NCBI GenBank assembly: GCA_964373795.1
Contig: CAYJVY010000001.1
Span: 101,537 to 133,536, forward strand
Direction: 5' to 3'
Source: an uncultured archaeon
GTDB lineage: Archaea > Iainarchaeota > Iainarchaeia > Iainarchaeales > DATDZZ01
DNA: 32,000 bases
A program made the position numbers and the translations under genes. Under the pieces are notes generated by a model, which did not search any database, was not told the origin of the DNA, and saw only the letters and a list, made by a program, of their open reading frames with translations. Shown one piece after another: positions 3 through 21,891 of this stretch. How positions within the stretch are numbered: the stretch's first letter is position 1; each line of letters opens with the position of its first letter.

Positions 3-422
3 GATTCTTCTGGAGAATTGACTCTTGAAGCAAGAAACTCTTTAAAGCAATTTAATTCTGATTTGGATAAAGTTCCGGGCGTTTTAAGGAATGCTTTTTT
101 AGGTGAAACTATTACTTTAGAAGTTAACTTTTCTGACAATAGCACTGAATTTTTTTGTGTTAAGACAACTTCTAAAATTGAAAGCATTTCTAGAATTAAT
201 TGTTCTAATCCTTCCTTGCTTGTTTCAATTAACGAATCTACTATTAAAGAGATTTCTTCAAGTGATAATTTTTTTGATAGTTTGGTTTCAGCTTATCTTT
301 CTGGTGAAATAAAGGTTTCACCGGTTGGAGTTCCAGCTACTCTTAAAGTTACTTTTGTAAATATTTTTTCGGCTGTGTTTTCTTTTTTTAATTCCTTGTT
401 TGGGAGAGTAGAGGTTAAATGA
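3..422 (+). CDS. hypothetical protein, probably 5'-truncated by the window edge; hydrophobic C-terminus
   Basis: The frame is open from nt 3 with no stop; the ORF track starts at TTG 18. Its stop overlaps the next start (ATGA at 419-422), suggesting translational coupling. No motif recognised. Confidence 0.45.
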   Translation, partial: DSSGELTLEARNSLKQFNSDLDKVPGVLRNAFLGETITLEVNFSDNSTEFFCVKTTSKIESISRINCSNPSLLVSINESTIKEISSSDNFFDSLVSAYLSGEIKVSPVGVPATLKVTFVNIFSAVFSFFNSLFGRVEVK

Positions 423-1492
423 CTGAAGCAATTCAGATTTTAAAGGACTATCAGAAAAAAGTTGATGTTGAATTAATTGCTTTTTTAAATGAAAAAATTT
501 CTGAAGCTAAAGGGCAAGATTCTTTTTCAATTGAATTGCTTAAAAGAATTAAGGAGGTAAGTGAGAAAGGCGGAGGAAAAAGAATTCGCCCTGCAATGGC
601 TATTTTTGGTTTTAAATGTTTTGATTCTTCTACTGAAAAAGAGATTATTAAGGCATCAATTTCTTTAGAATTAATTCATACTTTTTTTTTGTTTCACGAT
701 GACATAATGGATGAATCTGATACTAGAAGAGGATTGCCTACTTTGCATAAACAGTATGAATCCATTGCTTTAGAGTCTTTTCCTTCTTTTAATCCCAGGA
801 GATTTGGAGAGTCAATGGCAATGCTTGGAGGAGATTTGCTTTCTTCTTTTGGTTTTGAAGCAGTTCTTAGAACTTCTTTCTCTGAAAAACAAAAACTTAC
901 TGCTTTAAGAAAATTGAATGACATAATTTTTTTCACTTGTTTTGGGCAAATCAAAGATGTATTAAATGAAGGTAGAAAGGATTTCACTGAAGCAGATGTG
1001 TTAAATGTTCATACTTTAAAGACAGCTAAATATTCTATTGAAGGGCCTTGTCAGTTTGGAGCAATGTTTGCAAACGCTTCTCAAAAAGATTTAAAGGTTT
1101 TCACTGATTATGGAATTCCTGTTGGAATTGCCTTTCAAGTCCAAGACGATCTTTTAGGAGTGTTTGGTGATGAAAAAAAAATTGGAAAGTCTGCAGACTC
1201 TGATTTAAAGGAAGGAAAAAAAACCTTGCTTATTTTAAAGGCTTTAGAGAATGGTTCTGAAAAACAAAAAAAAGTTATTTACTCTGTTTTAGGAAACAGA
1301 AATGCTTCTCCTGAAAAAATTAATGAAGTAAGAGAAATAATTAAGGAAACTAAGAGTTTTGATTATTCTGTTAAAAAAGCTAAGGAACTACTTGAGAAAG
1401 GAAAAAAGGAAATGAAGAAATCCAAATTCAAATCCGAGGGAAAAGAGTTTTTGATTGGCATTGCTGATTACATGCTTTCAAGAGAATATTAA
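419..1492 (+). CDS. idsA: trans-polyprenyl (geranylgeranyl-type) diphosphate synthase
   Basis: Carries the two aspartate-rich motifs of trans-prenyltransferases: FLFHDDIMDESDTRRG (first) and FQVQDDLLGVFGD (second), followed by KxxxSDLxEGKKT. Product chain length cannot be read by eye. Confidence 0.9.
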   Translation: MTEAIQILKDYQKKVDVELIAFLNEKISEAKGQDSFSIELLKRIKEVSEKGGGKRIRPAMAIFGFKCFDSSTEKEIIKASISLELIHTFFLFHDDIMDESDTRRGLPTLHKQYESIALESFPSFNPRRFGESMAMLGGDLLSSFGFEAVLRTSFSEKQKLTALRKLNDIIFFTCFGQIKDVLNEGRKDFTEADVLNVHTLKTAKYSIEGPCQFGAMFANASQKDLKVFTDYGIPVGIAFQVQDDLLGVFGDEKKIGKSADSDLKEGKKTLLILKALENGSEKQKKVIYSVLGNRNASPEKINEVREIIKETKSFDYSVKKAKELLEKGKKEMKKSKFKSEGKEFLIGIADYMLSREY

Positions 1493-4134
1493 TTTTTTAC
1501 TTGTTTTTCTTTTATTGCCATTTGAGCTGCTGCGAGTTTTGCTATTGGAACCCTAAACGGACTGCAGCTAACATAATTTAATCCAATTTTGTGGCAGAAT
1601 TCAACTGAAGAAGCTTCTCCTCCGTGTTCTCCACAAATTCCTATTTCTAGTTCTGGATTTGTTTTTCTTCCAAGTTCAACACATAACTTCATTAGTTTTC
1701 CTACTCCTTCTTGATCTAATACTGCGAAAGGATCTTTTTCAAATATTTTTTTTTCCTCATAGTGTTGAACGAATTTTCCAATATCGTCTCTTGAAAACCC
1801 ATAAGTTGTTTGAGTTAAATCGTTTGTTCCAAAGGAAAAAAATTCTGCTTCTTTTGCTATTTCATCTGCTGTAATGCATGCTCTAGGCAATTCAATCATT
1901 GTTCCAATCTTGAATTTAACTCCTTTTTCTTTTAATTTTAGTTCTTCTGCGACTTTTAAAATTATTTTTTTCATTTCAGTTAATTCTTTTACTGTTCCCA
2001 CTAAAGGAATTTCGATTTCAGGTAATACCTTTATTCCTTCTTTACTTACCTCTAATGCAGCTTCTAGTGCTGCTCTTGCCTGCATTTCATATACTTCTGG
2101 ATAGCTTAGCCCTAATCTTACTCCTCTGTGGCCAAGCATTGGGTTTGTTTCTTTTAATGATTCTACTTTTGCTTTAATTATTTCTTTTTCTACATTCATT
2201 TCCTTACTCATTTCTTCTACATCTTTTTCAATAAATGGAAGAAATTCGTGTAAAGGCGGATCTAGAAATCTTATTGTTACTGGAAAGCCATTCATTTCTC
2301 TGAATAATTCTTTGAAATCATTTTTTTGTAATGGCTTGATTTTTTCTAAAGCTTTTTTTCTCCCTTCTAAGTCTTTTGCTAGAATCATTTCCCTAATTGT
2401 TTTAATCCTGTCTTCTTGAAAAAACATGTGTTCTGTTCTGCATAAACCTATTCCTTCTGCTCCAAATTCTCTTGCTTTTCTTGCATCAATTGGAGTGTCT
2501 GCATTTGCTCTTACTTTTAGTTTTCTGTATTTGTCTGCCCAATGCATTATTTCTTCAAATTCCTTGCTTAGAGTTGGATCTGTTACAGGAATTTGTCCTT
2601 TAAATATTTCTCCTGTTGCCCCGTCTAAAGTAATCCATTCACCTACTTTTATTACTTCTTGTTTTGAAGTAGTGAATTCTCCAGGATTTCCTTTAATGGA
2701 TATTTCTTCACATCCAACAATGCAGCATTTACCCATTCCTCTTGCAACAACTGCTGCATGACTTGTTAATCCTCCTCTTGAAGTTAGAATTCCTTGAGCT
2801 ACATGCATTCCTTCAATGTCATCTGGAGAGGTTTCAGCTCTAACTAAAATTATTTTTTCTCCTGGATTTTTTTCAAATAGTTCTTTTGCTTTTTCTGCGC
2901 TGAAAACAACTTTTCCTACTGCAGCTCCTGGAGAAGCAGCTAATCCTTTTGCAATTGCTTTAAATTCTTTTTTTGCTTTTTCATCTAACTGTTTATGCAG
3001 TAATTGATTTAACTGGTTTGCATTTATTTTTAGTAAGGCTTCTTTTTCTGTTAAAATTTTTTCTTTCACCATGTCTACTGCAATTTTTACTGCTGCTTTT
3101 GCAGTTCTTTTTCCATTTCTTGTTTGCAATAAATATAGCCTGTTTTCTTCAATTGTGAATTCAAAGTCTTGCAAGTCTTTGAAGTGTTTTTCTAGTTTTT
3201 CATATACTTGAATTAGTTTTTCATATGATTCTGGGAGATCTTTTTTCATTTCATCAATGTGTTTTGGAGTTCTAATTCCTGCTACTACATCTTCTCCTTG
3301 CGCGTTTAAGAGATATTCTCCGTAGTGTTCTTTTTCTCCTGTTGCAGGGTTTCGAGTGAATCCAACTCCTGTTGCACTAGAGTTTCCTTTGTTTCCGAAA
3401 ACCATTGCTTGAATATTTACAGCTGTTCCTGCATCGTCTTTTAATGAATTAATTCTTCTATAAGAAATTGCTCTAGAACTATTCCATGACTCAAAAACAG
3501 CATTAATTGTCATTCTTAATTGTTCTTCAGGGTTTTGAGGAAAACTTTTTCCTTTTGCTTTAACTAATTTCTTGTAATCTTCAACTAATTCCTTTAAATC
3601 TTGTGCACTTAAATCAGTGTCAAATTTTACTTTTCTTGCATGCTTTTTTTTTTCCAGTAACTCTTCAAAATCTGAATGACTTAACTCCATTACTACGTCT
3701 GAAAACATTTGAATAAATCTTCTATACGAATCCCATGCAACTCTTTCATTTTTTGTTTTCTCTGAAAATGCTTTAACTGATTCGTCGTTCATTCCCAGAT
3801 TTAAAACTGTATCCATCATTCCAGGCATGGAAACATAGCTTCCGCTTCTAACTGAAACAAATAAAGGGTTTTCTTTATCTCCTAATTTTTTGTTCATTTT
3901 TTTTTCTAATTCTTTTAATTTTTCTTTTACTTGTTCTTCTAATCCTTTAGGCCATTTTTTTTCTAATTCATAATATTTTTTGCATGCTTCAGTTGTAATA
4001 GTAAATCCTGGTGGAACCATTAAACCTATTGCAGTCATTTCCGCTAATTGAGCTCCTTTATTTCCTAATAGAAAAGCGCTTTCCTCGCTTGCTTTGCTTT
4101 CATTAAACGCGTATACAAGTCTTTCTTTATTCAT
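1489..4134 (-). CDS. ppdK: pyruvate, phosphate dikinase
   Basis: 881 aa. N-terminal LLGNKGAQLAEM ATP-grasp start, phosphohistidine swivel motif GGLTSHAAVVARGMGK, and a C-terminal PEP-utilising domain (GLCRTEHMF, FFSFGTNDLTQ, CGEHGG). Confidence 0.95.
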   Translation of the reverse strand: MNKERLVYAFNESKASEESAFLLGNKGAQLAEMTAIGLMVPPGFTITTEACKKYYELEKKWPKGLEEQVKEKLKELEKKMNKKLGDKENPLFVSVRSGSYVSMPGMMDTVLNLGMNDESVKAFSEKTKNERVAWDSYRRFIQMFSDVVMELSHSDFEELLEKKKHARKVKFDTDLSAQDLKELVEDYKKLVKAKGKSFPQNPEEQLRMTINAVFESWNSSRAISYRRINSLKDDAGTAVNIQAMVFGNKGNSSATGVGFTRNPATGEKEHYGEYLLNAQGEDVVAGIRTPKHIDEMKKDLPESYEKLIQVYEKLEKHFKDLQDFEFTIEENRLYLLQTRNGKRTAKAAVKIAVDMVKEKILTEKEALLKINANQLNQLLHKQLDEKAKKEFKAIAKGLAASPGAAVGKVVFSAEKAKELFEKNPGEKIILVRAETSPDDIEGMHVAQGILTSRGGLTSHAAVVARGMGKCCIVGCEEISIKGNPGEFTTSKQEVIKVGEWITLDGATGEIFKGQIPVTDPTLSKEFEEIMHWADKYRKLKVRANADTPIDARKAREFGAEGIGLCRTEHMFFQEDRIKTIREMILAKDLEGRKKALEKIKPLQKNDFKELFREMNGFPVTIRFLDPPLHEFLPFIEKDVEEMSKEMNVEKEIIKAKVESLKETNPMLGHRGVRLGLSYPEVYEMQARAALEAALEVSKEGIKVLPEIEIPLVGTVKELTEMKKIILKVAEELKLKEKGVKFKIGTMIELPRACITADEIAKEAEFFSFGTNDLTQTTYGFSRDDIGKFVQHYEEKKIFEKDPFAVLDQEGVGKLMKLCVELGRKTNPELEIGICGEHGGEASSVEFCHKIGLNYVSCSPFRVPIAKLAAAQMAIKEKQVKN

Positions 4135-4323
4135 TTAATTTTTCACCCCAAGGCAAAGAGAAAATAGCCTATTTAATTCGTGTAAATTACTTTCCTTTCA
4201 CAATCTTCTTAAACTTATTCTTTTAAATTCATTTTTTTTCGTCAATTAGTTTAATCTTTTTTCATTACTGGAACCTTTTTAACTAATTCCTTGTTTAAAA
4301 ATTTATTAAAAAGGTGATTAAAA

Positions 4324-5598
4324 ATTTCTTCATCTGAATTAAAAGAGTTTTATAAAAAATCTTTAGAGGAAAGAATTAAGTTAGTGAAAGAATTCTCCAA
4401 TCTTTCCGATGCAGATGTCAATTTGCTTTCTTCTTTCAAACCATTAGAATTTGAAGTTGCGAACAGAATGATTGAAAATGTTGTAGGAGTAATGCCTTTT
4501 CCTCTAGGAATTGCAACCAATTTTTTAATCAATGGAAAGGATTACTTAATTCCAATGGCTTTAGAAGAAGCCTCTGTTGTTGCAGCTGCTTCTCATTCAG
4601 CAAAGCTTGCACGCGAAAAAGGAGGATTTACTGCTTCTTCAACTGATCCAATAATGATTGGACAAATTCAGTTATTGAATGTTCCAAACCTATCTAAAGC
4701 AAAAAACGCAATTGAGTCTGCGAAAAAAGAAATTTTGGAATTCTGTAATTCAATTGATTCAGTGTTAGTGAAATTTGGAGGAGGAGCAAAGGATTTCACT
4801 TTACGAGAAATTCCCTTTTCTAAAGGAAAAATGCTTGTCTTTCACTTGCTTGTAGATGTTCGAGATGCAATGGGTGCAAATGCTGTTAACACAATGTGTG
4901 AAAAGCTTTCTCCGCGTTTAGAACAGCTTTCAGGAGGAGAAACTCGTTTAAGAATTTTATCAAATCTAGCAATTTATCGTTTAACTAAAGCAAAAGCTAT
5001 TTGGAGTAAAAAAATTTTAACAGAGCAATTCGGTGAACAAGCAGTTGACAGAATTTTAGATGCATTTGAATTTGCTGTAAACGATCAATTTCGTGCAACA
5101 ACTCATAACAAAGGAATAATGAATGGAATTGATGCAGTAGTAATTGCTACAGGAAATGACTTCAGAGCAGTTGAAGCTGGAGCACATTCCTATGCTGCTT
5201 TTGAGCATAATTATTCTTCTCTAACAAAATATTACAAAAATTCTGATGGAGACTTGGTTGGAGAAATTGAATTACCTTTAGCAATTGGTTTAATTGGTGG
5301 AGCAACTAAAGTGCATCCAATGGCTCAAGTTTCATTAAAAATTTTGGGAGTAAAAACAGCTAATGAATTAAGTCAAGTAATTGCTTCTGTTGGCCTTGCG
5401 CAAAACTTTGCTGCAATGCGTGCATTGGCAATTGAAGGAATTCAGCAAGGCCATATGAAGCTTCATTCCAGAAACCTTGCTTCAATGGCTGGAGCAAAAG
5501 GAAATCAAATAGATTTAATTGCAGCTCAAATGGTGAAAGAAAAAAACGTTTCATTTTCCAGGGCAAAAGAATTAATTGAAGGATTGCAAAAACACTAA
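4324..5598 (+). CDS. hmgA: HMG-CoA reductase, class II (start uncertain: ATT 4324 proposed, GTG 4384 in the ORF track)
   Basis: Class II signatures are present: ENVVG, EEASVVAAAS, VDVRDAMGANAVNTM, ATHNKGIMNGIDAVVIATGNDFRAVEAGAH, VGLAQNFAAMRALAIEGIQQGHMKLH. Homology-like sequence (SSELKEFYKKSLEERIKL) continues upstream of the GTG to the in-frame TGA at 4315-4317. GGTGA at 4313-4317 lies 6 nt before ATT 4324. Confidence 0.9.
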   Translation: MSSSELKEFYKKSLEERIKLVKEFSNLSDADVNLLSSFKPLEFEVANRMIENVVGVMPFPLGIATNFLINGKDYLIPMALEEASVVAAASHSAKLAREKGGFTASSTDPIMIGQIQLLNVPNLSKAKNAIESAKKEILEFCNSIDSVLVKFGGGAKDFTLREIPFSKGKMLVFHLLVDVRDAMGANAVNTMCEKLSPRLEQLSGGETRLRILSNLAIYRLTKAKAIWSKKILTEQFGEQAVDRILDAFEFAVNDQFRATTHNKGIMNGIDAVVIATGNDFRAVEAGAHSYAAFEHNYSSLTKYYKNSDGDLVGEIELPLAIGLIGGATKVHPMAQVSLKILGVKTANELSQVIASVGLAQNFAAMRALAIEGIQQGHMKLHSRNLASMAGAKGNQIDLIAAQMVKEKNVSFSRAKELIEGLQKH

Positions 5599-5629
5599 TT
5601 AATTCTTATATTTTTTATTGAAATCTTAG

Positions 5630-5691
5630 TTCCTGGTGCCTAAAATATGTTTCTTTTTTCCCTCTAAAAATTTGTTTTCCTGGTGCCTAAA
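5630..5691. repeat. two perfect 15-nt direct repeats TTCCTGGTGCCTAAA (5630-5644 and 5677-5691), the cores of a degenerate ~47-bp tandem duplication
   Basis: Read directly. The only GC-containing blocks in the AT-rich hmgA/HMGCS intergenic region. Confidence 0.85.
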
Positions 5692-5837: not shown

Positions 5838-6881
5838 ATGATTACTGGAATTGTTGGTTACGGAGCTTATATTCCGCAGTATAGAATTAAGGCTGAAACA
5901 ATTGCCGAGGTATGGGGAACTGATCCTAAAACAATTATTAATGGCTTGCTTATTCAAGAAAAAAGTGTTCCAGGAAAAGATGAAGACACTATTTCAATTT
6001 CAGTTCAAGCAGCTCGAAATGCTTTAACTCGCGCGCAAATAGATCCTCAAAAAATTGGAGCAATTTTTATTGGCTCTGAAAGCCATCCTTATGCAGTAAA
6101 GCCTTCTGCTTCAATTGTTGGAGATGCATTAAATGCTGGGCCAGATTTAATGATGGCTGACACAGAGTTTGCTTGCAAGGCTGGAACAGCTGCAATTCAA
6201 ATGGTTTACGGTTTAGTGAAATCTGAAACAATTGAATATGGTTTAGCAATTGGAGCTGATACTTCTCAAGCCTCTCCAAATAATGCTTTAGAATACTCTG
6301 CTTCTGCTGGAGGAGCAGCATTTATTTTAGGAAGACAAAAAAAAGAAGTCCTCGCTTCCTTGGATTCAACTTATTCTTTTGCAACTGATACCCCTGATTT
6401 TTGGAGAAGAGGTTTAGCTTCTTTTCCTTCTCATGCAGGCAGATTCACTGGAGAACCAGGTTATTTCAAGCACTTGGAAGCAGCTGCTAAAAAAATAATG
6501 GATTTAAATGGCTTTAAGCCTTCAGATTTTGATTTTGTTTCCTTTCATCAACCAAATGGAAAATTTCCTTTAACTGCTGCAAAAAATTTAGGTTTTAATT
6601 CAGAACAATTAAAAACCGCTTTGCTTGTAACAAGAATTGGGAACACTTACTCTGGAGCATCTCCTTTAGGTTTAACAGCAATTCTTGACATTGCAAAGCC
6701 TGGGCAAAAAATTCTTGTAACCTCTTATGGATCTGGTTCTGGAGCAGATGCATTTATTTTTACTGTAACAGATGTCTTACCTTCAAAACAAGGTTTAGCA
6801 AAAAAAACAGAAGACTATATTGCTAGAAAAAAATATTTATCTTACACTAAATACAGACAACACATGGAGCTCATCCACTAA
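5838..6881 (+). CDS. HMG-CoA synthase, archaeal type
   Basis: 347 aa, thiolase-fold condensing enzyme. Motifs GSESHPYAVKPSA, ACKAGT (catalytic Cys context), FHQPNGKF and GNTYSGA. Sits directly upstream of the thiolase and DUF35 partners. Confidence 0.9.
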   Translation: MITGIVGYGAYIPQYRIKAETIAEVWGTDPKTIINGLLIQEKSVPGKDEDTISISVQAARNALTRAQIDPQKIGAIFIGSESHPYAVKPSASIVGDALNAGPDLMMADTEFACKAGTAAIQMVYGLVKSETIEYGLAIGADTSQASPNNALEYSASAGGAAFILGRQKKEVLASLDSTYSFATDTPDFWRRGLASFPSHAGRFTGEPGYFKHLEAAAKKIMDLNGFKPSDFDFVSFHQPNGKFPLTAAKNLGFNSEQLKTALLVTRIGNTYSGASPLGLTAILDIAKPGQKILVTSYGSGSGADAFIFTVTDVLPSKQGLAKKTEDYIARKKYLSYTKYRQHMELIH

Positions 6882-6994: not shown

Positions 6995-8152
6995 ATGAAA
7001 GTAGCAGTTGTTGGAACTGGTTTAACTCAATTTGGAGAGTTATGGAATAAAGGCATTAAAGATTTGCTTGCTGAAGCTCAGTTAAAAGCTTTAGAGGATG
7101 CAAAAATGTCTGGAAAAGATATTCAAATGATATATACAGGTAACATGGTTTCAGGAGAATTAACTGGTCAAGAACATTTAGGAGCAATGGCTTCAGAGAA
7201 TTTAGGATTAAATATTCCTTCAACTCGAATTGAAGGAGCATGTGCTTCAGGTAGCTTAGCAATTCGAGAAGGAGTTTTTGCAATTCTTTCAGGGCAAGCA
7301 GATATTGTAATGGTTAATGGAGTAGAAAAAATGACTGATTGTTCTGTTGAACAAGTTACAACTGCTTTAATGGGTGCAGGTGATGAAGAATGGGAGGAAT
7401 TTCAAGGAGCAACTTTTCCAGGGCTTTATGCTTTATTTGCGAGAAGAATGTTTCATGAAAAATTAATTACTCGCGAACAACTTGCAATGGTTTCAGTTAA
7501 ATCTCACAAGCATGGAACCTTAAACCCTATTGCTCAATTCAAAAAAGAAATCACTGTAGACGATGTATTAAAGTCTTCAATGGTTGCAGATCCTTTAACC
7601 TTGCTTGATTGTTCTCCAATCTCTGACGGAGCTGCTTCAATTATTCTTGCAAAACCAGAACTAGCAAAAAAATTCACTGATTCGCCTGTTTACTTAATTG
7701 GTTCAGGGCAAGCAACTGATACTCTTGCATTGCATGCAAGAGATTCTTTAACTGAAATTAAAGGCACTCGAATAGCTGCTCAGCATGCTTTCAAGCAAGC
7801 AGGAATTTCAGTAAAAGATATTTCTATTACTGAAGTGCATGACTGTTTTTCTATTGCAGAGGTTTTAGCAATGGAGGGCATTGGCTTAACAAAGCCTGGA
7901 GAAACAGGGAAAGTAATTGAAGAAGGTCAAACATTTTTTGATGCAAAAATTCCAGTGAACACTTGTGGTGGATTAAAAGCTTGTGGGCACCCAATCGGAG
8001 CTACAGGAGTAAAACAAGCAATTGAAGTGGTTCATCAATTAAGAGGCGATGCAGGAAAAAGGCAAGTAAAAAATGCTTCAATTGGCATAACACATAATGT
8101 TGGAGGTACTGGAGCAACAGTAGTAGTAAATGTGTTTTCAAATAAAAGGTGA
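6995..8152 (+). CDS. acetyl-CoA acetyltransferase (archaeal acetoacetyl-CoA thiolase)
   Basis: 385 aa thiolase/SCP-x-like fold. Motifs EGACASGS (active Cys), HDCFSI, CGGLKACGHPIGATG and NVGGTG. Lies between HMGCS and DUF35. Confidence 0.9.
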   Translation: MKVAVVGTGLTQFGELWNKGIKDLLAEAQLKALEDAKMSGKDIQMIYTGNMVSGELTGQEHLGAMASENLGLNIPSTRIEGACASGSLAIREGVFAILSGQADIVMVNGVEKMTDCSVEQVTTALMGAGDEEWEEFQGATFPGLYALFARRMFHEKLITREQLAMVSVKSHKHGTLNPIAQFKKEITVDDVLKSSMVADPLTLLDCSPISDGAASIILAKPELAKKFTDSPVYLIGSGQATDTLALHARDSLTEIKGTRIAAQHAFKQAGISVKDISITEVHDCFSIAEVLAMEGIGLTKPGETGKVIEEGQTFFDAKIPVNTCGGLKACGHPIGATGVKQAIEVVHQLRGDAGKRQVKNASIGITHNVGGTGATVVVNVFSNKR

Positions 8153-8157: not shown

Positions 8158-8556
8158 ATGTATCGTTCAAGTCCAATTATTCGATGGAGAAGATATAACG
8201 ATAGATATCGCTTTGAAGGAAATCAATGCATTAAGTGTCAAACAGTTTTTTATCCAAAAAAATTTTTATGCAAATGTGGTTCAAAAGAATTCAACGCATT
8301 TGAGTTTTCAGGAAAAGGAGTCCTTCTTTCTTTTACTGAAATAAAGTCTCCTCCAGAGGTTTTCATTGAACAAGCCACCTACTGCATTGGAATAGTTCAA
8401 TTAATTGAAGGCCCTAAAATTACTTCCCAAATTGCTGATGTAGAATTAAAAGACTTAAAAATTGGAATGAAATTAATTTCTTCTTTCAGAAAATTTTATT
8501 CCTCTGGAGAAGAAGGAGCAATTCATTATGGAACAAAATTCATTCCAGATTTCTAA
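8158..8556 (+). CDS. DUF35 zinc-ribbon/OB-fold protein (scaffold of the thiolase/HMGCS complex)
   Basis: 132 aa. CIKCQ...CKCGS rubredoxin-like zinc ribbon followed by an OB-like region (GKGVLLSFTEI). Conserved position after the thiolase. Confidence 0.8.
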   Translation: MYRSSPIIRWRRYNDRYRFEGNQCIKCQTVFYPKKFLCKCGSKEFNAFEFSGKGVLLSFTEIKSPPEVFIEQATYCIGIVQLIEGPKITSQIADVELKDLKIGMKLISSFRKFYSSGEEGAIHYGTKFIPDF

Positions 8557-9512: not shown

Positions 9513-10283
9513 ATGAAGCGAAAAACTTTTTCAAAAGGAAGAAAAGAGTCTCGAAAAAAGTTTCAAGCAAGAAAGCTTGAAGGCCTTAAAGCAAGAATTC
9601 CAGAAGAAGTTAGAACTCTTTCATTCGCCGAATTTGTTAAAAGATGCAATAATTTTTCCCTTCTTTTTCGAGATAGTGGAACTGTAGAAAGAAAAAACCT
9701 TTTGAAAGAAATTGAAGCACTTAAACGTGTAAACCCAAAACTATTCAAAGAACTTAGTAGAGCAGTAACTAATTTTGATGCTATTTCTTCAGGACAAACA
9801 TGGTTTTTCCTCTTGGAAAAACTTAAAAGACCTTACAAGAGTTTTAGAAAAGATTGGCCAAAAATAAGAATGAAAAGAATAACTGATTTTAGGATTGACC
9901 AAAGGTTTAAGCGTGACCAAATCAAATTAGCAGAAGATCGTATTAAATTCAACAAATTTCTCTTAACTTCAAGAGGTGCAGAAAAAGCGCGACTTGAAGA
10001 AGAAATTGCTGCAAAAAGTTCCGAAATAGAAAGCTTGCAAGAAGAAATAACTCATATTGATAGACAAATAGCAGCTTTTGAACAAACATCTTTTCCAGGA
10101 AAGAGCAGTGCAGAGTTTGAGAGATACTTAAAAGGACTTAAGATAGAAAAGAGTATTTATAGTTCAAAGCACATGCAAAAATCCGTGCAAGAAGGATCAA
10201 TTCTTTATTCATTATTGTATAAAGCCTATAAAGCGTTTCGTAGATTTAATCCATCTCTTAAAAATTCACAATTATTTGTTTAA
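9513..10283 (+). CDS. hypothetical protein with a highly basic N-terminus and a predicted coiled coil
   Basis: 256 aa. Starts MKRKTFSKGRKESRKKFQARK. Heptad-like region ARLEEEIAAKSSEIESLQEEITHIDRQIAAFE. Abuts the upstream ORF. Confidence 0.6.
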   Translation: MKRKTFSKGRKESRKKFQARKLEGLKARIPEEVRTLSFAEFVKRCNNFSLLFRDSGTVERKNLLKEIEALKRVNPKLFKELSRAVTNFDAISSGQTWFFLLEKLKRPYKSFRKDWPKIRMKRITDFRIDQRFKRDQIKLAEDRIKFNKFLLTSRGAEKARLEEEIAAKSSEIESLQEEITHIDRQIAAFEQTSFPGKSSAEFERYLKGLKIEKSIYSSKHMQKSVQEGSILYSLLYKAYKAFRRFNPSLKNSQLFV

Positions 10284-10327: not shown

Positions 10328-11329
10328 ATGAATTCAGTTAAAGCTTCTGCTCCTGGAAATTTATTTTTTTTAGGCGAGCACGCAGTTGTTTATGGTTGTC
10401 CTGCAATTAACACTGCAGTTAACAAGAGAACTGTTGCAATTGCTTCAGAACGCACTGATAACAGAGTTGAAGTTGAATCAGCGTTTTATGGAAAAGCAAA
10501 TGCTTTGCTTCAAAATGGAAAATTAGTTGAAAGAAAATTTGAAGAAAAAGGATTAGATTCAATGCTTGATTTATGTGAATCCACTTTAAATGCATTTGAA
10601 TTGCGTTCAGGATTTAATTTGAAAATTGATTCAGAGATTCCAGTTGAATCAGGAATGTCTTCTTCTACTGCAGTTCTTTCAGCTTCTTTTAAAGCAATAA
10701 CTGAGTTGTTTGGACAAAAAGTTAAATTGGAAAAATATTTTGACTATTTATATCCTCATCAAGTAAAAATTCATGGAGGAAAAGCATCTGGAAGTGAAAT
10801 TGCTTCTTCGGCTTTTGGAGGGTTTAATCGCGTGCAAAAAATAACTTTGCCTGATGGAAAAGCAAAACTTGACTTTAAATCTTTAGGCAATCAAGAATTT
10901 CAAGTAGTAATTGGGAATACTAAAATTCGTTCCCCAACTGGCTTGGTTGTAGGAACACATCATCCATCTCTTTTCGCGCGATGGAAAGATCAAACAGATA
11001 AAGCAATTAAAGACATTGAAAAGCTTTCAAAAAAAATGCAGTCAGCAATAAAAAAAGGAAATGCAGAAGCAGTTGGAAAAATAATGAATAAAAATCATAA
11101 AATTTTGCGAGACAAATTTCTTGTAAGCCATCCAAAACTTGAAGACTGCATTAATGAAGCATTAAAAGCTGGTGCTTTAGGAGCAAAGCTTTCAGGAGCA
11201 GGATGGGGAGGAGTAATGTTTGCTCTTGTAACCCCTGAATCAAAGGAAGCAGTAGTGAAAGCAATTCAATCAACTGGTTCTGAAGCAATTTCTACTCAAA
11301 TTGGAGTTGAAGGCGTTCGCTTAGAATAA
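10328..11329 (+). CDS. mvk: mevalonate kinase
   Basis: Three GHMP kinase motifs: APGNLFFLGEHAVVYG, PVESGMSSSTAV and KLSGAGWGGVMFAL. Confidence 0.9.
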   Translation: MNSVKASAPGNLFFLGEHAVVYGCPAINTAVNKRTVAIASERTDNRVEVESAFYGKANALLQNGKLVERKFEEKGLDSMLDLCESTLNAFELRSGFNLKIDSEIPVESGMSSSTAVLSASFKAITELFGQKVKLEKYFDYLYPHQVKIHGGKASGSEIASSAFGGFNRVQKITLPDGKAKLDFKSLGNQEFQVVIGNTKIRSPTGLVVGTHHPSLFARWKDQTDKAIKDIEKLSKKMQSAIKKGNAEAVGKIMNKNHKILRDKFLVSHPKLEDCINEALKAGALGAKLSGAGWGGVMFALVTPESKEAVVKAIQSTGSEAISTQIGVEGVRLE

Positions 11330-16240: not shown

Positions 16241-16891
16241 ATGACTTCGACTTTAGTTTACCTTGTAAGACATGCAGAAACTGATTGGAATGTTTTGAAA
16301 AAACTTCAAGGGCAAACAAATGAACAAAATTTAACTCTATTAGGATTAAAGCAAGCAGAGTGTTTGAAAAAATTTTTTGAGGAAAACCCTGTTGACTTGA
16401 TTTTTTCTAGTCCAATGAAGAGGGCAATGGATTCAGTGAAAATTGTTTTTCCTGGCAAAAGAGTTTTCACTGATCATAGATTAATTGAACGAGGTTTTGG
16501 AGAATTTGAAGGAAAAACATGGCAAGAAATTGAAGCAATTCGTCCTGGATTACATGCATTGTATAAAGATACTAGAACATTGCCCGAAGTAAAAGGAGCT
16601 GAAACAATTGAAGAACTTCAAAACAGGTCAGTTGAAGCCTTGCAAGACATAATTAAAATTGGAGAAGGAAAGAAAATTGCAGTAATTGTTCATGGAGCAA
16701 CAATTAAAACAATTTTGTTAAAAATCTTAAATAAGCCTTTTACTTTCTATAAAGAAATTCCTCAAAAAAACGGCTGCATTAATTTGTTAGAGTTTTCAAG
16801 TAAAAATTTTAGTTCAGGAAAAATTTTAATTCAAGGAGATTTAAGTCATTTACAAATTTTGTCTGAAAAAGATTTTGATTTAAAGAGGTGA
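16241..16891 (+). CDS. histidine phosphatase superfamily protein (phosphoglycerate mutase-like)
   Basis: Catalytic RHG-type start LVRHAETDWN, plus later ERGFGEFEG and HGATI motifs. Its TGA stop lies 4 nt before the decarboxylase TTG start. Confidence 0.85.
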   Translation: MTSTLVYLVRHAETDWNVLKKLQGQTNEQNLTLLGLKQAECLKKFFEENPVDLIFSSPMKRAMDSVKIVFPGKRVFTDHRLIERGFGEFEGKTWQEIEAIRPGLHALYKDTRTLPEVKGAETIEELQNRSVEALQDIIKIGEGKKIAVIVHGATIKTILLKILNKPFTFYKEIPQKNGCINLLEFSSKNFSSGKILIQGDLSHLQILSEKDFDLKR

Positions 16892-16895
16892 TTGT

Positions 16896-17900
16896 TTGAC
16901 TTCCAAAATTTTAAAAGCAACAGCTTTGGCTAATGCAAATATTGCTTTAACAAAGTATTGGGGGAAAAGAGATAAAGCATTAATTCTGCCAATGAACGGT
17001 TCAACCTCGGTTTCATTAAATCATTTAAACACTATTACAACAGTGGAGTTTTCTGAAAAATTTAAAGAAGACTTTATTACTTTAAACGATGAAGAATTAA
17101 AAAAAGATGCAGCAGATATTGTAAAACATTTAGATCTTATTCGTGAAATGGCTGGAATAAAATTTAAAGCCAAAATGATTTCAACCTCTAATTTTCCAAT
17201 TGCAGCTGGCTTGGCTTCAAGTGCTTCTGGTTTTGCAGCTCTTTCTTTAGCTGCTTCAAAAGCAGCTGGCTTGGAGTTAAATGAAAAAGAATTATCCATT
17301 CTCGCTCGCCGAGGAAGCGGTTCCGCTTCCAGATCTATTCCAGGAGGATTTGTTGAATGGAAAAAAGGTGAACAAGCAGATGGTTTAGATAGTTTTGCTT
17401 ATTCTTTTGCTTCAAAAGATTATTGGCCTGAATTTAGAATGCTTACAACAATTTTAACTGAAGCTAAAAAGAAATGGAGTTCTAGATCTGGAATGGCTCA
17501 AACAGTTGCTTCTTGCAAGCTTTACAAGGGATGGCTTGACTCAGTTCAAGAAGACATTGAAGGATTAAAAAAAGCGGTTTTGCAAAAAGATTTTCAAACA
17601 GTTGGAGAAATAGCTGAAATGAATTGCTTGAAAATGCATGCAACAATGATTTCTACTAATCCTCCAATAATTTATTGGCAGCCTGCAACTATTTCAGTAA
17701 TTCATTCAGTTCTTTCTTGGCGCGATCAAGGCCAAAAATGTTTTTTTACTATAGATGGCGGTCCAAACGTTAAAGTAATTTGTTTAGCGCAAGACGCAAA
17801 ACACTTGACAAAAGAGTTGCTCGCAGTAGAAGGAGTAAAAAAAGTAATTGAATGCTCTCCAGGAGACAAAGCTCAACTCATTGAAAAACACTTGTTTTAG
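16896..17900 (+). CDS. mvaD: diphosphomevalonate decarboxylase family (MDD; substrate MVAPP versus MVAP not resolvable by eye)
   Basis: Motifs NIALTKYWGKRD, AAGLASSASGFAAL, RRGSGSASRSIPGGFVEW, MHATM and TIDGGPNVKV. TTG start preceded by GAGGTGA. Confidence 0.9.
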   Translation: MTSKILKATALANANIALTKYWGKRDKALILPMNGSTSVSLNHLNTITTVEFSEKFKEDFITLNDEELKKDAADIVKHLDLIREMAGIKFKAKMISTSNFPIAAGLASSASGFAALSLAASKAAGLELNEKELSILARRGSGSASRSIPGGFVEWKKGEQADGLDSFAYSFASKDYWPEFRMLTTILTEAKKKWSSRSGMAQTVASCKLYKGWLDSVQEDIEGLKKAVLQKDFQTVGEIAEMNCLKMHATMISTNPPIIYWQPATISVIHSVLSWRDQGQKCFFTIDGGPNVKVICLAQDAKHLTKELLAVEGVKKVIECSPGDKAQLIEKHLF

Positions 17901-18077
17901 AAGGACTGATTTAATGATTAGGTTTACATCAAAGATTGTAAAAGTTGGAAAAGATATTTATGCATTATTTCCTGGCGAACTATAAAAACGCTTTACAACT
18001 TACTCCGTGGTTTTTGATTGAATTAGATTGGTATTTAAATAATTTCAAAAAATAATTTATAGCTGGTTTGAATTTTT

Positions 18078-19019
18078 ATGTTAATTGAATTAGGAATTTT
18101 AGTTCTTGCATTAATTGTTTTAGCTAAGTCTTCTGAAATAGTTATTGATGCAAGCATTAAGATTTCAGAGTACCTGAATATTTCCCAGCTTGCAATTGGA
18201 TTTATTGTAATTGCAGTAGCTGTTTCAATGCCTGACTTTGTTGTATCTATTACTGCTTCTCTTCAACAAAAACCTGCTCTTGCCATAGGAGATGCTTTGG
18301 GGAGCAGCATTGCAAATATTTGCCTTGTATTAGGAATTGCTACTTTTATTAGAAAAATCGATGTTGAAAGAAAGCATACTTTAGAATCAGCTGAACTGCT
18401 TTTATTAATTTCAATTATTCCTTTAGTTGTTTTAAGTAAAGCAATTGTTGGAACCTTTGAAGGAATAATTTTACTGCTTACTTTTGTTTTGTATGTTTTT
18501 TTTGTAGTGAAAAGCAAGTTTTCCTTAAAAATTAAAGACGGAGTAACTCATAAAGATTTCATTAAACTTTTACTGTTTTTCGCGTTTGGATTAATTATTG
18601 TAATTGTTTCCGCACAATTTGTTGTAGGCTCTGCAATTGATTTGGCTAAACTTTTGAAAATAAATGAAGCAGTAATTGGTTTAATTGTATTATCTTTTGG
18701 CACTACTTTACCTGAACTAGCAATTGATTTCACTGCAATTAGAAGAGGACAAGTAGCCTTAGCAATAGGGGATGTTTTAGGAAGCACTGTAACAAATCTA
18801 ACCTTAATTCTTGGAACAGTTTTAATTATTTCTCCAACAGTAATTGATTTTGCTTTTTACTCTTTACCTTTAGCTTTCATTGTAATAGCTAATTCTTTTC
18901 TAGTATACAATTTATACAAGCACCAATACCTTGGAAAAAAACAAGGACTAGCATTTTTGCTTTTATATGTTTTATTTATTTTTTCAACTCTATTGTTTTC
19001 CGTTCGCCCTGCAATTTAA
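18078..19019 (+). CDS. Ca2+/cation antiporter (CaCA family, YrbG-like)
   Basis: About 10 TM segments with the two alpha-repeats GDALGSSIANI and GDVLGSTVTNL. Confidence 0.85.
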   Translation: MLIELGILVLALIVLAKSSEIVIDASIKISEYLNISQLAIGFIVIAVAVSMPDFVVSITASLQQKPALAIGDALGSSIANICLVLGIATFIRKIDVERKHTLESAELLLLISIIPLVVLSKAIVGTFEGIILLLTFVLYVFFVVKSKFSLKIKDGVTHKDFIKLLLFFAFGLIIVIVSAQFVVGSAIDLAKLLKINEAVIGLIVLSFGTTLPELAIDFTAIRRGQVALAIGDVLGSTVTNLTLILGTVLIISPTVIDFAFYSLPLAFIVIANSFLVYNLYKHQYLGKKQGLAFLLLYVLFIFSTLLFSVRPAI

Positions 19020-19062
19020 AAAATTTTCTCACACAATATATTTGCTTTTTTGAGGTGAAAAA

Positions 19063-20211
19063 ATGAAGGAATTAACTGTTTCTGCTCCAGGAAAACTAAT
19101 GCTTTCAGGAGAATGGAGTGTTCTTGAGCTAGGAGTTCCTTGTGTTGTAATGGCTATTGATAAAAGAGTTTACGCGAAAATTCATTCAACCTCAGATAAT
19201 AAAATTGTTTTAAATGCTCTAGACGTTGGTTTAAGCAATATCTCTGGATACTTTGATTTAAGTTCAAAAAAACTTTTATTTGAAAAAGAATTATCCAAAG
19301 AAGAATTAGATAAAGTTGTGTTCATTAAAAATGCTATTGAATTAAGTTTGGCTTTTTTGCAAGACAAAAAAGTTTCATTGAAAGGATTTTCATTAGAAAC
19401 TAAAAGTGATGATGCTCAAGTAAAACTTGAAGATGGCTCTGTAAAAAAAATTGGTTTTGGAAGCTCTGCGGCTGTATGCGTTGCAGTTTCAGGAGCTGTG
19501 TTTGCTTTACATGAACAAGAATTTAATTCTTATTCGTCTAAAGAAATTATTTTCAAGATTTCAGCTTTGGCTCATTTCACTGCTCAAGGAAAACTTGGAA
19601 GCTCTTTTGATATAGCTGCTTCTTCTTTTGGAGGAGTTCTTTTATATAAAAAATTTGACCCAGAATGGGTTGTAACTGAATTTAACAAAGGCAAACCAGT
19701 GCATGAATTAATGCTTGAAAAATGGCCTTATTTAGAAATTCGTTCTTTAAAGCTTCCAACAGATTTCAATTTATGTGTTGGTTGGACTAAGTCTAGTGCT
19801 TCAACTAAAGAATTAGTTTCAAAAGTGAACGAGTTTAAAAAAAATAATAAAGATAATTACATGCAAATAATAAAAAAAATTGAAGGTGTTACTTCAAAAT
19901 TAATTTCAGAACTTGAATCAAGCAATAAATTAACTGTTTTACAGTTATTACGCGAAAACAGGAAATACTTAAAAGAATTCAGTGATTTAACTCAAAACAA
20001 TTTAGAAACCCCTGAATTAAAGACTTTAGCTGATACAGCTGACTTGCTTGGAGCTGCAGGAAAGTTTTCCGGAGCAGGAGGAGGAGACTGCGGAATTGCA
20101 GTAACATTTTCAAACGAAGCAGCGCACAAAATTCAAAACGCTTGGAAAGAAAAAGGCTTATATCCATTAAACGTAAAAATAGCACAGCAAGGTTTGAGGT
20201 TGGAACACTAA
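19063..20211 (+). CDS. mvaK2: phosphomevalonate kinase, GHMP/ERG8 type
   Basis: Motifs APGKLMLSGEWSVLE, GFGSSAAV, VGWTKSSAST and FSGAGGGDCGIAV, which match the bacterial/fungal PMK pattern. GAGGTGA ribosome-binding site. Confidence 0.85.
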   Translation: MKELTVSAPGKLMLSGEWSVLELGVPCVVMAIDKRVYAKIHSTSDNKIVLNALDVGLSNISGYFDLSSKKLLFEKELSKEELDKVVFIKNAIELSLAFLQDKKVSLKGFSLETKSDDAQVKLEDGSVKKIGFGSSAAVCVAVSGAVFALHEQEFNSYSSKEIIFKISALAHFTAQGKLGSSFDIAASSFGGVLLYKKFDPEWVVTEFNKGKPVHELMLEKWPYLEIRSLKLPTDFNLCVGWTKSSASTKELVSKVNEFKKNNKDNYMQIIKKIEGVTSKLISELESSNKLTVLQLLRENRKYLKEFSDLTQNNLETPELKTLADTADLLGAAGKFSGAGGGDCGIAVTFSNEAAHKIQNAWKEKGLYPLNVKIAQQGLRLEH

Positions 20212-20843
20212 ATTATTTTTTTTTGTTCAAGTATTTCTAAATCTTTTTTAAAAGCAGGGGTAAAATTTCCCTTATTCATATTTTTAATTTCTTGCAAGGA
20301 ATAAAATCCTGCCTCTTCTATTTCTTCTTTATCTAATTTGAATGATCCTTCATGAATTGTTTTAAACAAGTAAACAAATTGTAAATGGATTGGATCTTCA
20401 ACTCTAAATTTTGCAATGAATTTAATTTTTTTAAATTTTATGCCAATTTCTTCTTCAGCTTCCTTTAAAGCAGTTTTTTTAGGAGTATCTCCTAAGCTAA
20501 TATGTCCTGCAGTAGAACATGTAAATTTTCCAGGATGAGTATCAATTAATTTACTTCTTTTTTGTAAAAAAATTTCGGTTTTTGAATTAAACACAATTAA
20601 ATGAATTACCTTACAATAAACTCCTAATTTATTATGAATTTTTGCTGAGACTGTTAAAACCTTTTTCTCTTTTTCGTTAACTAATTCAAGTAACTCTATT
20701 TTTCCTTTTTTGAATTCTGTTTCTTCTTCTCTGTTTAATAAAACTAGTTCTGGCTTTAATTCTAGGACTTTTTCCTTTGATTTAATCTCTTCCCAGAAAA
20801 CAATTTTTTTAAAATCCATTTCAATAAAACACTGTTTACTCAT
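20208..20843 (-). CDS. Nudix hydrolase, IDI-1-like subfamily (start at Met 20843 or 20819, not 20915)
   Basis: Nudix box GHISLGDTPKKTALKEAEEEIGI, preceded by HPGKFTCSTAGH, which parallels WPGVWTNSVCGH of type 1 IPP isomerase. The longest ORF would overlap fni, so an internal Met is preferred. Confidence 0.75.
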   Translation of the reverse strand: MSKQCFIEMDFKKIVFWEEIKSKEKVLELKPELVLLNREEETEFKKGKIELLELVNEKEKKVLTVSAKIHNKLGVYCKVIHLIVFNSKTEIFLQKRSKLIDTHPGKFTCSTAGHISLGDTPKKTALKEAEEEIGIKFKKIKFIAKFRVEDPIHLQFVYLFKTIHEGSFKLDKEEIEEAGFYSLQEIKNMNKGNFTPAFKKDLEILEQKKII

Positions 20844-20874
20844 TAATTTAAATTTAATGGATATAAATTTAATA
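20844..20874. promoter_or_regulatory. very short divergent promoter region shared by the Nudix gene and fni (TTTAAATTTAA and ATATAAATTT TATA-like boxes)
   Basis: Only 13-55 bp separate the two divergent starts, depending on start choice. The region is entirely A/T with palindromic TTTAAA. No experimental support. Confidence 0.3.
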
Positions 20875-21891
20875 ATGCCTGGAGAGGATACTTCTGCAAG
20901 AAAAATGCAGCACATTAAAATTGCATTGCAACCTGATTTAAGTCAGTTTCAATCAATTTCAACTGGCTTGGAAAAAATTCAATTAAATTACAACGCCTTG
21001 CCCGAAATTGATTTAAGCGAGGTTTCCATTGAAACAACTTTTTTAGGAAAAAAATTTTCAGCTCCACTTTATGTTAGTGGAATGACTGGCGGCTGTAAAC
21101 CAGCTGAAAAAATTAATAAAGATATTGCAAGGGCTTGTGAAGAACTCGGATTAGGAATGGGTGTTGGCTCGCAAAGAGCAATGCTTGAAGACCCTTCTTT
21201 AACTGAAACCTATGTTGTAAGAGATGTTGCTCCTTCAATTTTTTTAGCCGGAAACCTCGGAGCAGTACAATTAAAGAATTATTCTCTTGAAAGAATAGAG
21301 GAAATGATTAACTCAATTAAAGCAGATGCTTTGGCAATTCATTTAAATCCTGCTCAAGAAGCAGTTCAACCTGAAGGTACAACAAATTTTTCCAATATAT
21401 TATCATTAATTGACAAAGCTTCAAGAAAGCTTTCCAAACCTGTTTACGTTAAAGAAGTTGGAAACGGCATTTCAAGAGAAGTAGCTGAAAAGCTTTCTAA
21501 AACAAATATTCAAGCATTAGATGTTGGAGGAGCAGGAGGCACTTCTTGGACTAGAATTGATTATTTACGTAACAAGAAAAACAAGTTTGGGCCGTTCGCG
21601 GAATTCGGAATTCCAACAAAAGATTCTTTAGAACAAGTTAGAGAAGTTTTCTCTAAACCAATTATTGCTACTGGCGGAATTAGAACTGGCTTAGATGTAG
21701 TGAAATGCTTGTCTTTAGGGGCTTCTTTGTGTGGAATGGCTTTTCCTGTTTTAAAAGCCCAAGACAAAGCAGGATTTGAAGGGGTGAAAGAATTCTTGGA
21801 AAAAACAATGACTGAAATAAAGATTGGACTTTTCTTAGTTGGAGCAAAAAATATTTCTGAATTAAGAAAATTAAAGCCAATAAACTATTAA
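20875..21891 (+). CDS. fni: isopentenyl-diphosphate delta-isomerase, type 2 (FMN-dependent)
   Basis: Begins MPGEDTSARKMQHIKIAL, like known type 2 IDI N-termini. TIM-barrel flavoprotein motifs SGMTGG, GVGSQR, VKEVGNG and ATGGIRTGLD. The upstream part of ORF 20710 overlaps the Nudix gene and looks non-coding. Confidence 0.9.
   Translation: MPGEDTSARKMQHIKIALQPDLSQFQSISTGLEKIQLNYNALPEIDLSEVSIETTFLGKKFSAPLYVSGMTGGCKPAEKINKDIARACEELGLGMGVGSQRAMLEDPSLTETYVVRDVAPSIFLAGNLGAVQLKNYSLERIEEMINSIKADALAIHLNPAQEAVQPEGTTNFSNILSLIDKASRKLSKPVYVKEVGNGISREVAEKLSKTNIQALDVGGAGGTSWTRIDYLRNKKNKFGPFAEFGIPTKDSLEQVREVFSKPIIATGGIRTGLDVVKCLSLGASLCGMAFPVLKAQDKAGFEGVKEFLEKTMTEIKIGLFLVGAKNISELRKLKPINY

Follow-up and report, generated by a model that had tools for sequence, protein, structure and literature searches.

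How does an archaeon come to carry, at a single locus, a set of mevalonate genes of which one part is typically archaeal and another resembles that of Gram-positive bacteria? We addressed this question for a 32-kb stretch of contig CAYJVY010000001.1 (assembly GCA_964373795.1) from an uncultured archaeon of the Iainarchaeota, referred to here as the window, to which all results on gene content, Pfam, NCBIfam and tblastn apply. Open reading frames (ORFs) were listed and all of them scanned against Pfam, and bit scores were judged against the curated NCBIfam cut-offs. Each of the nine pathway genes named in the initial annotation was recovered in place by the ORF listing, Pfam and NCBIfam, all on the plus strand (Table 1). 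We consider it probable that these genes make up a complete classical mevalonate route, with enzyme activities inferred from family membership, and that they occupy the isoprenoid locus common to the group, in which the lower module was exchanged in place.

In this route, a complex of acetoacetyl-CoA thiolase, HMG-CoA synthase (HMGCS) and a DUF35 protein would condense acetyl-CoA to HMG-CoA, which a class II HMG-CoA reductase (HMGR) would convert to mevalonate. Mevalonate kinase (MVK) would then form mevalonate 5-phosphate, phosphomevalonate kinase (PMK) mevalonate 5-diphosphate, and diphosphomevalonate decarboxylase (DMD), with ATP, isopentenyl diphosphate (IPP) by decarboxylation; an FMN-dependent type 2 isomerase (IDI2) would interconvert IPP and dimethylallyl diphosphate (DMAPP), and an IdsA-like synthase would carry out elongation to farnesyl (FPP) or geranylgeranyl diphosphate (GGPP). 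As for the locus, the genome would have retained an MVK clade, here MVK-A, that elsewhere is mostly paired with the archaeal module of phosphomevalonate dehydratase (PMDh), anhydromevalonate phosphate decarboxylase (AMPD) and isopentenyl phosphate kinase (IPK). PMK and a bacterial-like DMD, with their closest relatives in other DPANN archaea, would have joined the retained MVK-A, and unrelated genes would have been inserted later between the pathway genes.

The locus and its lower module in related archaea

Judging by its named homologues and by the archaeal markers DtdA (PF04414) and TrmB, the host probably belongs to the DPANN archaea, in the Diapherotrites/Iainarchaeota group, which agrees with the DPANN-like archaeon assumed in the initial annotation. 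The best homologue of the window PMK (76% identity) is named Candidatus Diapherotrites, the named proteins among the best 120 PMK homologues are all from DPANN (Diapherotrites, Aenigmarchaeota, Nanoarchaeota or plain "archaeon"), and those among the best 120 MVK homologues are DPANN except for one eukaryotic transcript entry. These lists contradict the idea of a Gram-positive-type set recently imported. The exceptional entry, protein P0242, is an MVK-A homologue of 42% identity whose sole record is a eukaryotic transcript (eukprot EG_transcript_16291), and it may reflect contamination or transfer. The HMGCS/thiolase/DUF35 trio is a further archaeal pointer, the locus is syntenic with four Diapherotrites-labelled contigs, and the one GTDB species genome found to match was Candidatus Iainarchaeum AR10. 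The window contained no tRNA genes, no Rfam matches and no ribosomal markers.

All three genes of the classical lower pathway, MVK, a GHMP-type PMK and DMD, score above their cut-offs. The best structure for the PMK is Listeria 3K17 (168 bits), and its motifs PGKLMLSGEW, GFGSSAA and SGAGGGDCG are intact. A search for AA-kinase (IPK), AcnX, UbiD and UbiX genes, which the initial annotation had advised for the rest of the genome, was run on the window and found none, either by Pfam in all ORFs or by tblastn with the module of a related locus, L013 (best E = 0.035); this fits the classical route, and the window does not qualify as a carrier of the archaeal PMDh/AMPD/IPK pathway.

The cluster is real but loose. 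All nine genes are present at one locus, as had been claimed, but about 13 unrelated genes are interspersed among them; even so, the presence of nine genes from a single pathway among about 23 rules out chance clustering, and the pathway gene order is repeated in at least eight independent contigs. Across Diapherotrites relatives (loci numbered with the prefix L), a scaffold of HMGR-HMGCS-thiolase-DUF35, a lower module, IDI2 and DtdA is conserved, with pyruvate phosphate dikinase (PPDK) upstream in some, and three different lower modules are found on it. In L002, L003 and L005 (Diapherotrites-labelled) the cluster is compact and holds MVK-B, DMD and PMK in the order HMGR-HMGCS-thiolase-DUF35-MVK-DMD-(NUDIX)-PMK-(IDI2), with PPDK upstream in L005 and DtdA plus a 158-aa winged-helix ORF downstream in L003, all of which also flank the locus in the window. 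The window is collinear with this compact cluster, but expanded by insertions. The shared scaffold, from PPDK to DtdA and the winged-helix ORF, holds MVK-A-UbiX-UbiD-AcnX(large)-AcnX(small)-IPK, the archaeal lower pathway, in three further loci: L010, which is named Diapherotrites, L013 and L018. The third module is the hybrid of MVK-A, DMD and PMK seen in the window, and L009 and L015 carry the same combination, each on a single contig. Outside the Diapherotrites, L007 (Aenigmatarchaeota) and L008 (Nanoarchaeota) have DMD-MVK-PMK operons; an AA_kinase gene near the L007 cluster, considered as an IPK, was identified as archaeal UMP kinase. Of the MVK-A loci whose flanks are informative, UbiD/AcnX/IPK-type genes are present in 25 and DMD and/or PMK in 12 plus the window; no locus combines the two modules in complete form.

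Comparison of the window with L002, L003 and L005 gave identities of 51-63% for HMGR, HMGCS, thiolase and DMD, 41-49% for PMK and 29-34% for MVK, the MVKs of these three loci being 47-54% identical mutually and those of clade B overall 44-57%. The best structure for the window MVK is M. mazei MVK (111 bits, vs 64 for Leishmania MVK), and for MVK-B it is Leishmania MVK (235 bits, vs 116 for M. mazei). With MVKs that adjoin UbiX/UbiD/AcnX/IPK the window MVK shares 51-58% identity, and with the MVK-A of L016 and of L041/L051 it shares 59-64%; HMGCS and thiolase of L051 are 69-71% identical to those of the window. L041 and L051 are likely one genome, given their shared sample and the position of both contig ends inside MVK-A. 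In L016 (603-2544) and L041 (1-1501), close relatives at 59-61% identity to the window MVK, MVK-A and an MVK-B-like kinase stand in tandem directly upstream of UbiX-UbiD-AcnX-IPK.

The genes of the locus also differ in their apparent histories. Upper-gene trees and identities group L012, L013 and L010 together, L003, L002 and L005 together, and the window with L009. The nearest relatives of the window, L009 and L015, are 65-71% identical to it for HMGCS (L009 only), thiolase and MVK (65-68% for MVK), yet for DMD the identity to the window drops to 45%. This 363-aa DMD (L009 10834-11925, L015 3187-4278) best matches eukaryotic and Sulfolobus structures (255-295 bits), a pattern opposite to that of the window DMD, for which bacterial structures score above Sulfolobus. 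Similarly, L012 and L013 pair as sisters in the upper genes, in MVK and in IDI2 but differ in their lower modules, with UbiX/UbiD/AcnX/IPK in L013 and an inverted PMK-DMD pair, with no UbiD, AcnX or IPK, in L012. Two ORFs after MVK in L012 (186 and 264 aa), considered as decayed UbiX and IPK, showed no similarity to them and were rejected. The mismatch between DMD clades and the module differences between sister loci suggest that the lower pathway was replaced repeatedly at this locus. These comparisons support reading the window as a chimera in which MVK-A is combined with PMK and a DMD of bacterial-like type. Other DPANN, and not Gram-positive bacteria, hold the closest relatives of the genes that were exchanged. 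The lateral assembly first proposed is thus supported, though by other evidence than was then put forward, and the supposed source is not.

A purely vertical history, in which the classical cluster descended from a DPANN/Iainarchaeota ancestor and the differences arose solely by gene loss and fast divergence, without lateral assembly, seems to us unlikely. Gene order conserved across Diapherotrites, a lower operon also found in Aenigmatarchaeota and Nanoarchaeota, and nearest homologues nearly all from DPANN would each fit such descent, as would a reconciliation for Micrarchaeota that derives most mevalonate (MVA) genes from the DPANN ancestor, except HMGCR and PMVK (PMC12892359); two deep MVK clades in one slot, as divergent as the identities and best structures above indicate, sister loci with DMDs of different deep clades, and the sister loci L012 and L013 with their different modules and the inverted DMD/PMK pair of L012 would not.

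Exchange of the lower module in place can be extended, tentatively and with slightly less than even confidence, to a joint reading in which a series of module exchanges took place at one locus, the window chimera documents the classical route displacing the archaeal one, and a NUDIX protein is an unrecognised accessory. Four states would make up this series: the archaeal UbiX/UbiD/AcnX/IPK module with MVK-A (L010, L013, L018); the archaeal module with a second, tandem MVK-B (L016, L041); MVK-A with DMD/PMK in varied positions and orientations (window, L009, L015, L012); and the all-classical MVK-B/DMD/PMK (L002, L003, L005).

Decarboxylase identity and contig integrity

The enzyme of Anaerolinea thermophila in structures 6N0X and 6N0Z is a phosphomevalonate decarboxylase (PMD), and PMD specificity has been changed to a DMD specificity through mutagenesis (PMC9254496); a conserved Lys marks DMD and a conserved His marks PMD (PMC11052028, section 3.4). 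We combined the latter criterion with a comparison of the 6N0X and 6N0Z chains, in which two visible differences occur, YWG(N/K)RD and G(H/M)A, the wild type having Asn and His. The window decarboxylase has Lys in YWGKRD, Met in SGMAQ, a GSGSASRS motif and the catalytic Asp in TIDGGPN, and six DPANN orthologues likewise have the Lys, the Met, GSGSASRS and the catalytic Asp. It thus bears the DMD signature of conserved Lys and catalytic Asp, with no PMD-type His. Among structures it scores 273 bits with Anaerolinea 6N0Z, 268 with 6N0X, 248 with S. epidermidis DMD and 178 with Sulfolobus DMD, and on the PMD model NF040704 it reaches 181 bits (cut-off 475).

That the decarboxylase is truly a PMD, in a route via isopentenyl phosphate with IPK encoded elsewhere and PMK redundant or in another role, we regard as very unlikely. 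The data cover a 32-kb window of a contig of at least 188.7 kb, a small part of the genome, and the Anaerolinea PMD does outscore the S. epidermidis DMD, but it is the Lys/Met variant chain 6N0Z rather than 6N0X that scores higher, Lys and Met stand in place of the PMD-type Asn and His, and the NF040704 score is far under its cut-off. In addition, the PMK is intact, a PMK accompanies DMD in most DMD-bearing loci, all compact clusters included, and no locus has both DMD and IPK. With its Lys/Met residues, its NF040704 score and no AA_kinase gene, the window does not belong with the Haloarchaea-type combination of PMD and IPK.

An assembly or binning artefact that joined fragments of different organisms into a mosaic is barely credible, for although the source is a metagenome-assembled contig and the independent assembly (Logan ERR3478686) does not cover the part upstream of 11.4 kb, that assembly matches the window from 11.4 to 25 kb almost exactly (HAD through DtdA, including DMD, PMK and IDI2), and together with the uniform G+C content (about 31%, range 0.28-0.37), a gene order that runs collinear, between PPDK and DtdA, with that of eight independent contigs, and the occurrence of MVK-A, DMD and PMK on single contigs in L009 and L015, this makes misassembly unlikely.

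Several observations nonetheless weigh against a complete classical route with an exchanged lower module, which remains our preferred explanation. MVK barely passes its cut-off (170 vs 163 bits), the closest solved structure of the decarboxylase is the PMD of Anaerolinea thermophila, and an IPK or an archaeal-type module may lie elsewhere in the genome, outside the 32-kb window. No gene for geranylgeranylglyceryl phosphate synthase (GGGPS), digeranylgeranylglyceryl phosphate synthase (DGGGPS) or glycerol 1-phosphate (G1P) dehydrogenase was seen in the window, the second Asp-rich motif of the prenyl synthase is atypical (DDLLG near residue 243, not DDxxD), and no canonical start codon is present for the N-terminal part conserved in HMGR. 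Per-gene trees, recommended in the initial annotation, did bring out incongruent gene histories, but they are neighbour-joining trees without support values, outgroups or a species tree, so that the number of transfers and their direction are inferred, and fast evolution could mimic part of the incongruence.

Upper pathway, isomerases and neighbouring genes

Table 1. Predicted features of the window, followed by relatives of its NUDIX protein in other loci (positions of the latter are those of the locus named; scores in bits).
Feature	Position	Strand	Model matches and remarks
Short-chain trans-prenyl diphosphate synthase, IdsA/GGPPS-like	419..1492	+	PF00348 210
Pyruvate phosphate dikinase (PPDK)	1489..4134	-	Pfam PPDK_N, PEP-utilizers, PEP-utilizers_C; outside the pathway, conserved upstream neighbour
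Class II HMGR	4324..5598 (probable ATT start; ORF finder: GTG 4384)	+	TIGR00532 439, cut-off 260
HMGCS, archaeal type	5838..6881	+	TIGR00748 515, cut-off 353; NF003274 523
Intergenic hairpin, then five tandem copies of AAAATTTGAAAA	6879..6981	+	Between HMGCS and thiolase
Acetoacetyl-CoA thiolase, archaeal type partnering with HMGCS	6995..8152	+	NF004720 539, cut-off 420
DUF35/ChsH2 scaffold protein, zinc ribbon and OB fold	8158..8556	+	PF01796, PF12172; 5 nt downstream of thiolase
MVK, clade A, archaeal-like	10328..11329	+	TIGR00549 170, cut-off 163
DMD	16896..17900	+	TIGR01240 314, cut-off 171
PMK, GHMP-type, Gram-positive type	19063..20211	+	TIGR01220 249, cut-off 166
YfcD/IDI-1-like NUDIX protein	20208..20843	-	PF00293; YfcD 53, IDI-1 41, both below cut-off; divergent from IDI2
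Type 2 FMN-dependent IPP isomerase (IDI2)	20857..21891	+	TIGR02151 388, cut-off 281
DtdA (archaeal D-aminoacyl-tRNA deacylase) and 158-aa winged-helix-like ORF	23259..24639	-	PF04414
NUDIX relative, L003	9484-10008		
NUDIX relative, L029	4009-4512		
NUDIX relative, L038	3862-4380		
NUDIX relative, L046	12972-13478		
NUDIX relative, L048	931-1479		
NUDIX relative, L049	8403-8957		
NUDIX relative, L062	2073-2576		

The HMGR belongs to class II, scoring 73 bits on the class I model TIGR00533 vs 439 on TIGR00532, and its motifs EE, NKG, GND and GHM...H align with those of the structures, 6DIO included; we take these motifs to hold the catalytic Glu, Lys, Asp and His. Among structures it scores highest with 6DIO (440 bits) and with 1QAX from P. 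mevalonii (434 bits), ahead of S. pneumoniae (306 bits) and E. faecalis (268 bits), which makes it nearest to the Pseudomonas mevalonii type and not, as first thought, to the Gram-positive one. Upon inspection of its 5′ end, we found that the coding region reaches upstream of GTG 4384 (window 4318-4386), where the in-frame peptide LKISSSELKEFYKKSLEERIKL aligns with the N-termini of relatives and the conserved N-terminus SSELKEFYKKSLEERIKL with MKTS..FYKKSL in four of them. Between the preceding stop codon and GTG 4384 there is no ATG, GTG or TTG, but there is an ATT, at 4324, and a GGTGA motif precedes it by 6 nt. The gene looks as if it begins at a rare AUU start (ATT 4324), or as if an ATG was lost by sequencing error or mutation.

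For HMGCS, the bacterial model TIGR01835 gives 129 bits (cut-off 360). HMGCS, thiolase and DUF35 are neighbouring genes of the families expected for the channeling complex, which their products may form; the archaeal complex compared here is that of Methanothermococcus thermolithotrophicus. The window differs from it in its thiolase, which reaches 537 bits on NF053570, the model for the Methanothermococcus thiolase, and so stays under the equivalog cut-off of 600, and in the 113-nt spacer with hairpin and repeats that separates HMGCS from thiolase. The hairpin stands directly 3′ of the HMGCS stop codon (-19.1 kcal/mol, z = -4.85) and the tandem array of AAAATTTGAAAA just ahead of the thiolase start; outside this spacer, AAAATTTGAAAA occurs in the window at chance level, with no enrichment.

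The characterised synthases that the prenyl synthase matches best in NCBIfam are IdsA (225 bits) and GGPPS (213 bits), neither match reaching the equivalog cut-off, and the start of the gene overlaps by 4 nt the end of an unknown ORF (18-422). Its first Asp-rich motif, DDIMD at residue 94, has Phe at -4 and -5, a pattern of FPP synthases; this pattern and the DDLLG motif leave the chain length of the product uncertain. As a conserved member of the locus the synthase was rejected, since it is not adjacent to PPDK in L018.

IDI2 lies well within its equivalog model, and its structure scores are nearly equal for Thermus 1VCF (237 bits) and Sulfolobus 2ZRU (235 bits), so that the Gram-positive label given to it earlier does not hold either. 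The listed ORF start of IDI2, TTG 20710, overlaps the NUDIX gene, and an independent gene call gives ATG 20857. The called starts of the two genes are about 13 nt apart, separated by an A/T-rich, near-palindromic spacer (20843-20857), and translation from other in-frame starts, 20819 and 20875, would leave a leaderless-style spacing.

The NUDIX protein does not qualify as a type 1 isomerase (IDI-1), with scores of 33-41 bits against cut-offs of 106-127. Its Nudix box KEAEEEIGI is intact, but in comparison with an E. coli IDI-1 reference sequence it has Ala in place of the Cys of the motif TNxCxHP, and it lacks the ExE motif. Bona fide IDI-1 versions, with TNxCCSHP and EHE, occur in L042 and L046c. 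A word-based homologue search with the NUDIX protein returned two relatives only, and relatives stand beside MVA genes in L003, L029, L038, L042, L046, L048, L049, L053 and L062; the YfcD/IDI-1-like NUDIX gene in DPANN adjoins both DMD/PMK and UbiD/AcnX/IPK modules. The protein may be a prenyl diphosphate hydrolase, for example one that supplies dimethylallyl phosphate (DMAP) for UbiX. An accessory that travels with both module types and makes isopentenyl phosphate or DMAP from IPP or DMAPP is one possibility.

Focusing on the surroundings of the pathway genes, PPDK is in a matching position in L005, L010, L013 and L018, and DtdA with the winged-helix ORF forms a conserved downstream border, with homologues likewise placed in L003, L010, L012, L013 and L018. 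The genes interspersed among those of the pathway are PPDK (minus strand), three ORFs of no known family, a HAD-IIA hydrolase, an acylphosphatase, a three-gene ABC transporter (minus strand), TrmB, a histidine phosphatase, a Na/Ca exchanger and the NUDIX gene (minus strand). The histidine phosphatase, TrmB, ABC transporter and Na/Ca exchanger of the window are not conserved at the locus in relatives, and the HAD gene was rejected as a conserved member because the HAD phosphatases found in the window, in L003 and in L013 are non-orthologous, being of different subfamilies. A 256-aa ORF just upstream of MVK (9513-10283), considered as a hidden IPK, was rejected for want of an AA_kinase signal; it has only weak sub-threshold matches, mostly to coiled-coil-type families. 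The histidine-phosphatase gene (cobC/dPGM-like, 16241-16891) ends 4 nt upstream of DMD, which suggests that the two are co-transcribed. Farther downstream, on the minus strand (27554-28301), there is a 130-aa ORF with a match of 63 bits to PF18894, the family "putative phage metallopeptidase"; it adjoins a 121-aa ORF of no known family, upstream of a DinB-type polymerase gene.

Known pathways and meaning of the locus

The typological mix described in the initial annotation was confirmed, the window combining an archaeal HMGCS/thiolase/DUF35 trio and a class II HMGR with a PMK that fits the Gram-positive model and a DMD nearest to bacterial structures. The window shares MVK, GHMP-type PMK, DMD and archaeal HMGCS with thiolase with the classical pathway of Sulfolobales and of some DPANN and Asgard archaea (PMC6107057; PMC11052028), but departs from Sulfolobus in its PMK, which scores 97 bits on the Sulfolobus-type model NF040957 (Arch_PMK) vs 249 on the Gram-positive one, and in its DMD (178 bits vs 248-273 for bacterial structures). 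With the Gram-positive mvaK1-mvaD-mvaK2-fni plus mvaS/mvaA set it has in common the lower enzyme types, class II HMGR and IDI2, and a PMK nearest to a Listeria structure. It does not qualify as such a set, however: its HMGCS is archaeal and not mvaS, and comes with thiolase and DUF35, its HMGR is nearer to that of P. mevalonii, and its nearest sequence relatives are DPANN and not Firmicutes.

The archaeal MVA pathway runs via trans-anhydromevalonate 5-phosphate and uses the PMDh AcnX, a UbiD-type AMPD and IPK (PMC9254496, PMC11052028). As found in L010, L013 and L018, it shares with the window the upper pathway, MVK-A, IDI2 and the flanking genes, but in the window PMK and DMD stand in the place of AcnX, UbiD, UbiX and IPK. 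To the PMD and IPK route of Haloarchaea and Chloroflexi the window is linked by the closest solved structure of its decarboxylase, from Anaerolinea thermophila, and differs from it in its DMD-type signature residues, the presence of PMK and the lack of an IPK in the window.

The pathway type, its occurrence in DPANN and the precursor autonomy of some DPANN are already known, and no new pathway is described here. A classical pathway has been reported in some DPANN (PMC6107057, PMC11052028). Hoshino and Gaucher (2018) found numerous HMGR-II genes in DPANN, PMK/DMD in a few Micrarchaeota, and mostly MVK with IPK in Diapherotrites (PMC6107057), and a 2024 survey lists Sulfolobales, Asgard archaea and several DPANN metagenome-assembled genomes as carriers of the eukaryote-type pathway (PMC11052028). 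An MVA pathway was detected in 39.7% of Diapherotrites genomes (PMC8407392), and Micrarchaeota orders use either mvaD or ipk (PMC12892359). Isoprenoid autonomy in a DPANN archaeon, at first singled out as notable, has therefore already been published (PMC6107057, PMC11052028, PMC8407392), and the locus scaffold and gene order are common across the phylum.

In the literature searched, we found no description of a module difference at one genomic spot among relatives. The origin and spread of the classical and archaeal mevalonate variants are debated (PMC6107057, PMC11052028, PMC9254496). Our locus and its relatives would present two solutions to the lower pathway as interchangeable cassettes at a fixed position in a single archaeal group, mixed states included, and they offer gene pairs with which to ask whether MVK-A and MVK-B are interchangeable. 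They also raise the question of why a two-gene route that costs more ATP would replace one of five genes with its need for an Fe-S enzyme and prenylated FMN, a comparison of ATP and cofactors that follows from known biochemistry. Overall, the locus is a further indication that isoprenoid precursors are made autonomously in some DPANN lineages.

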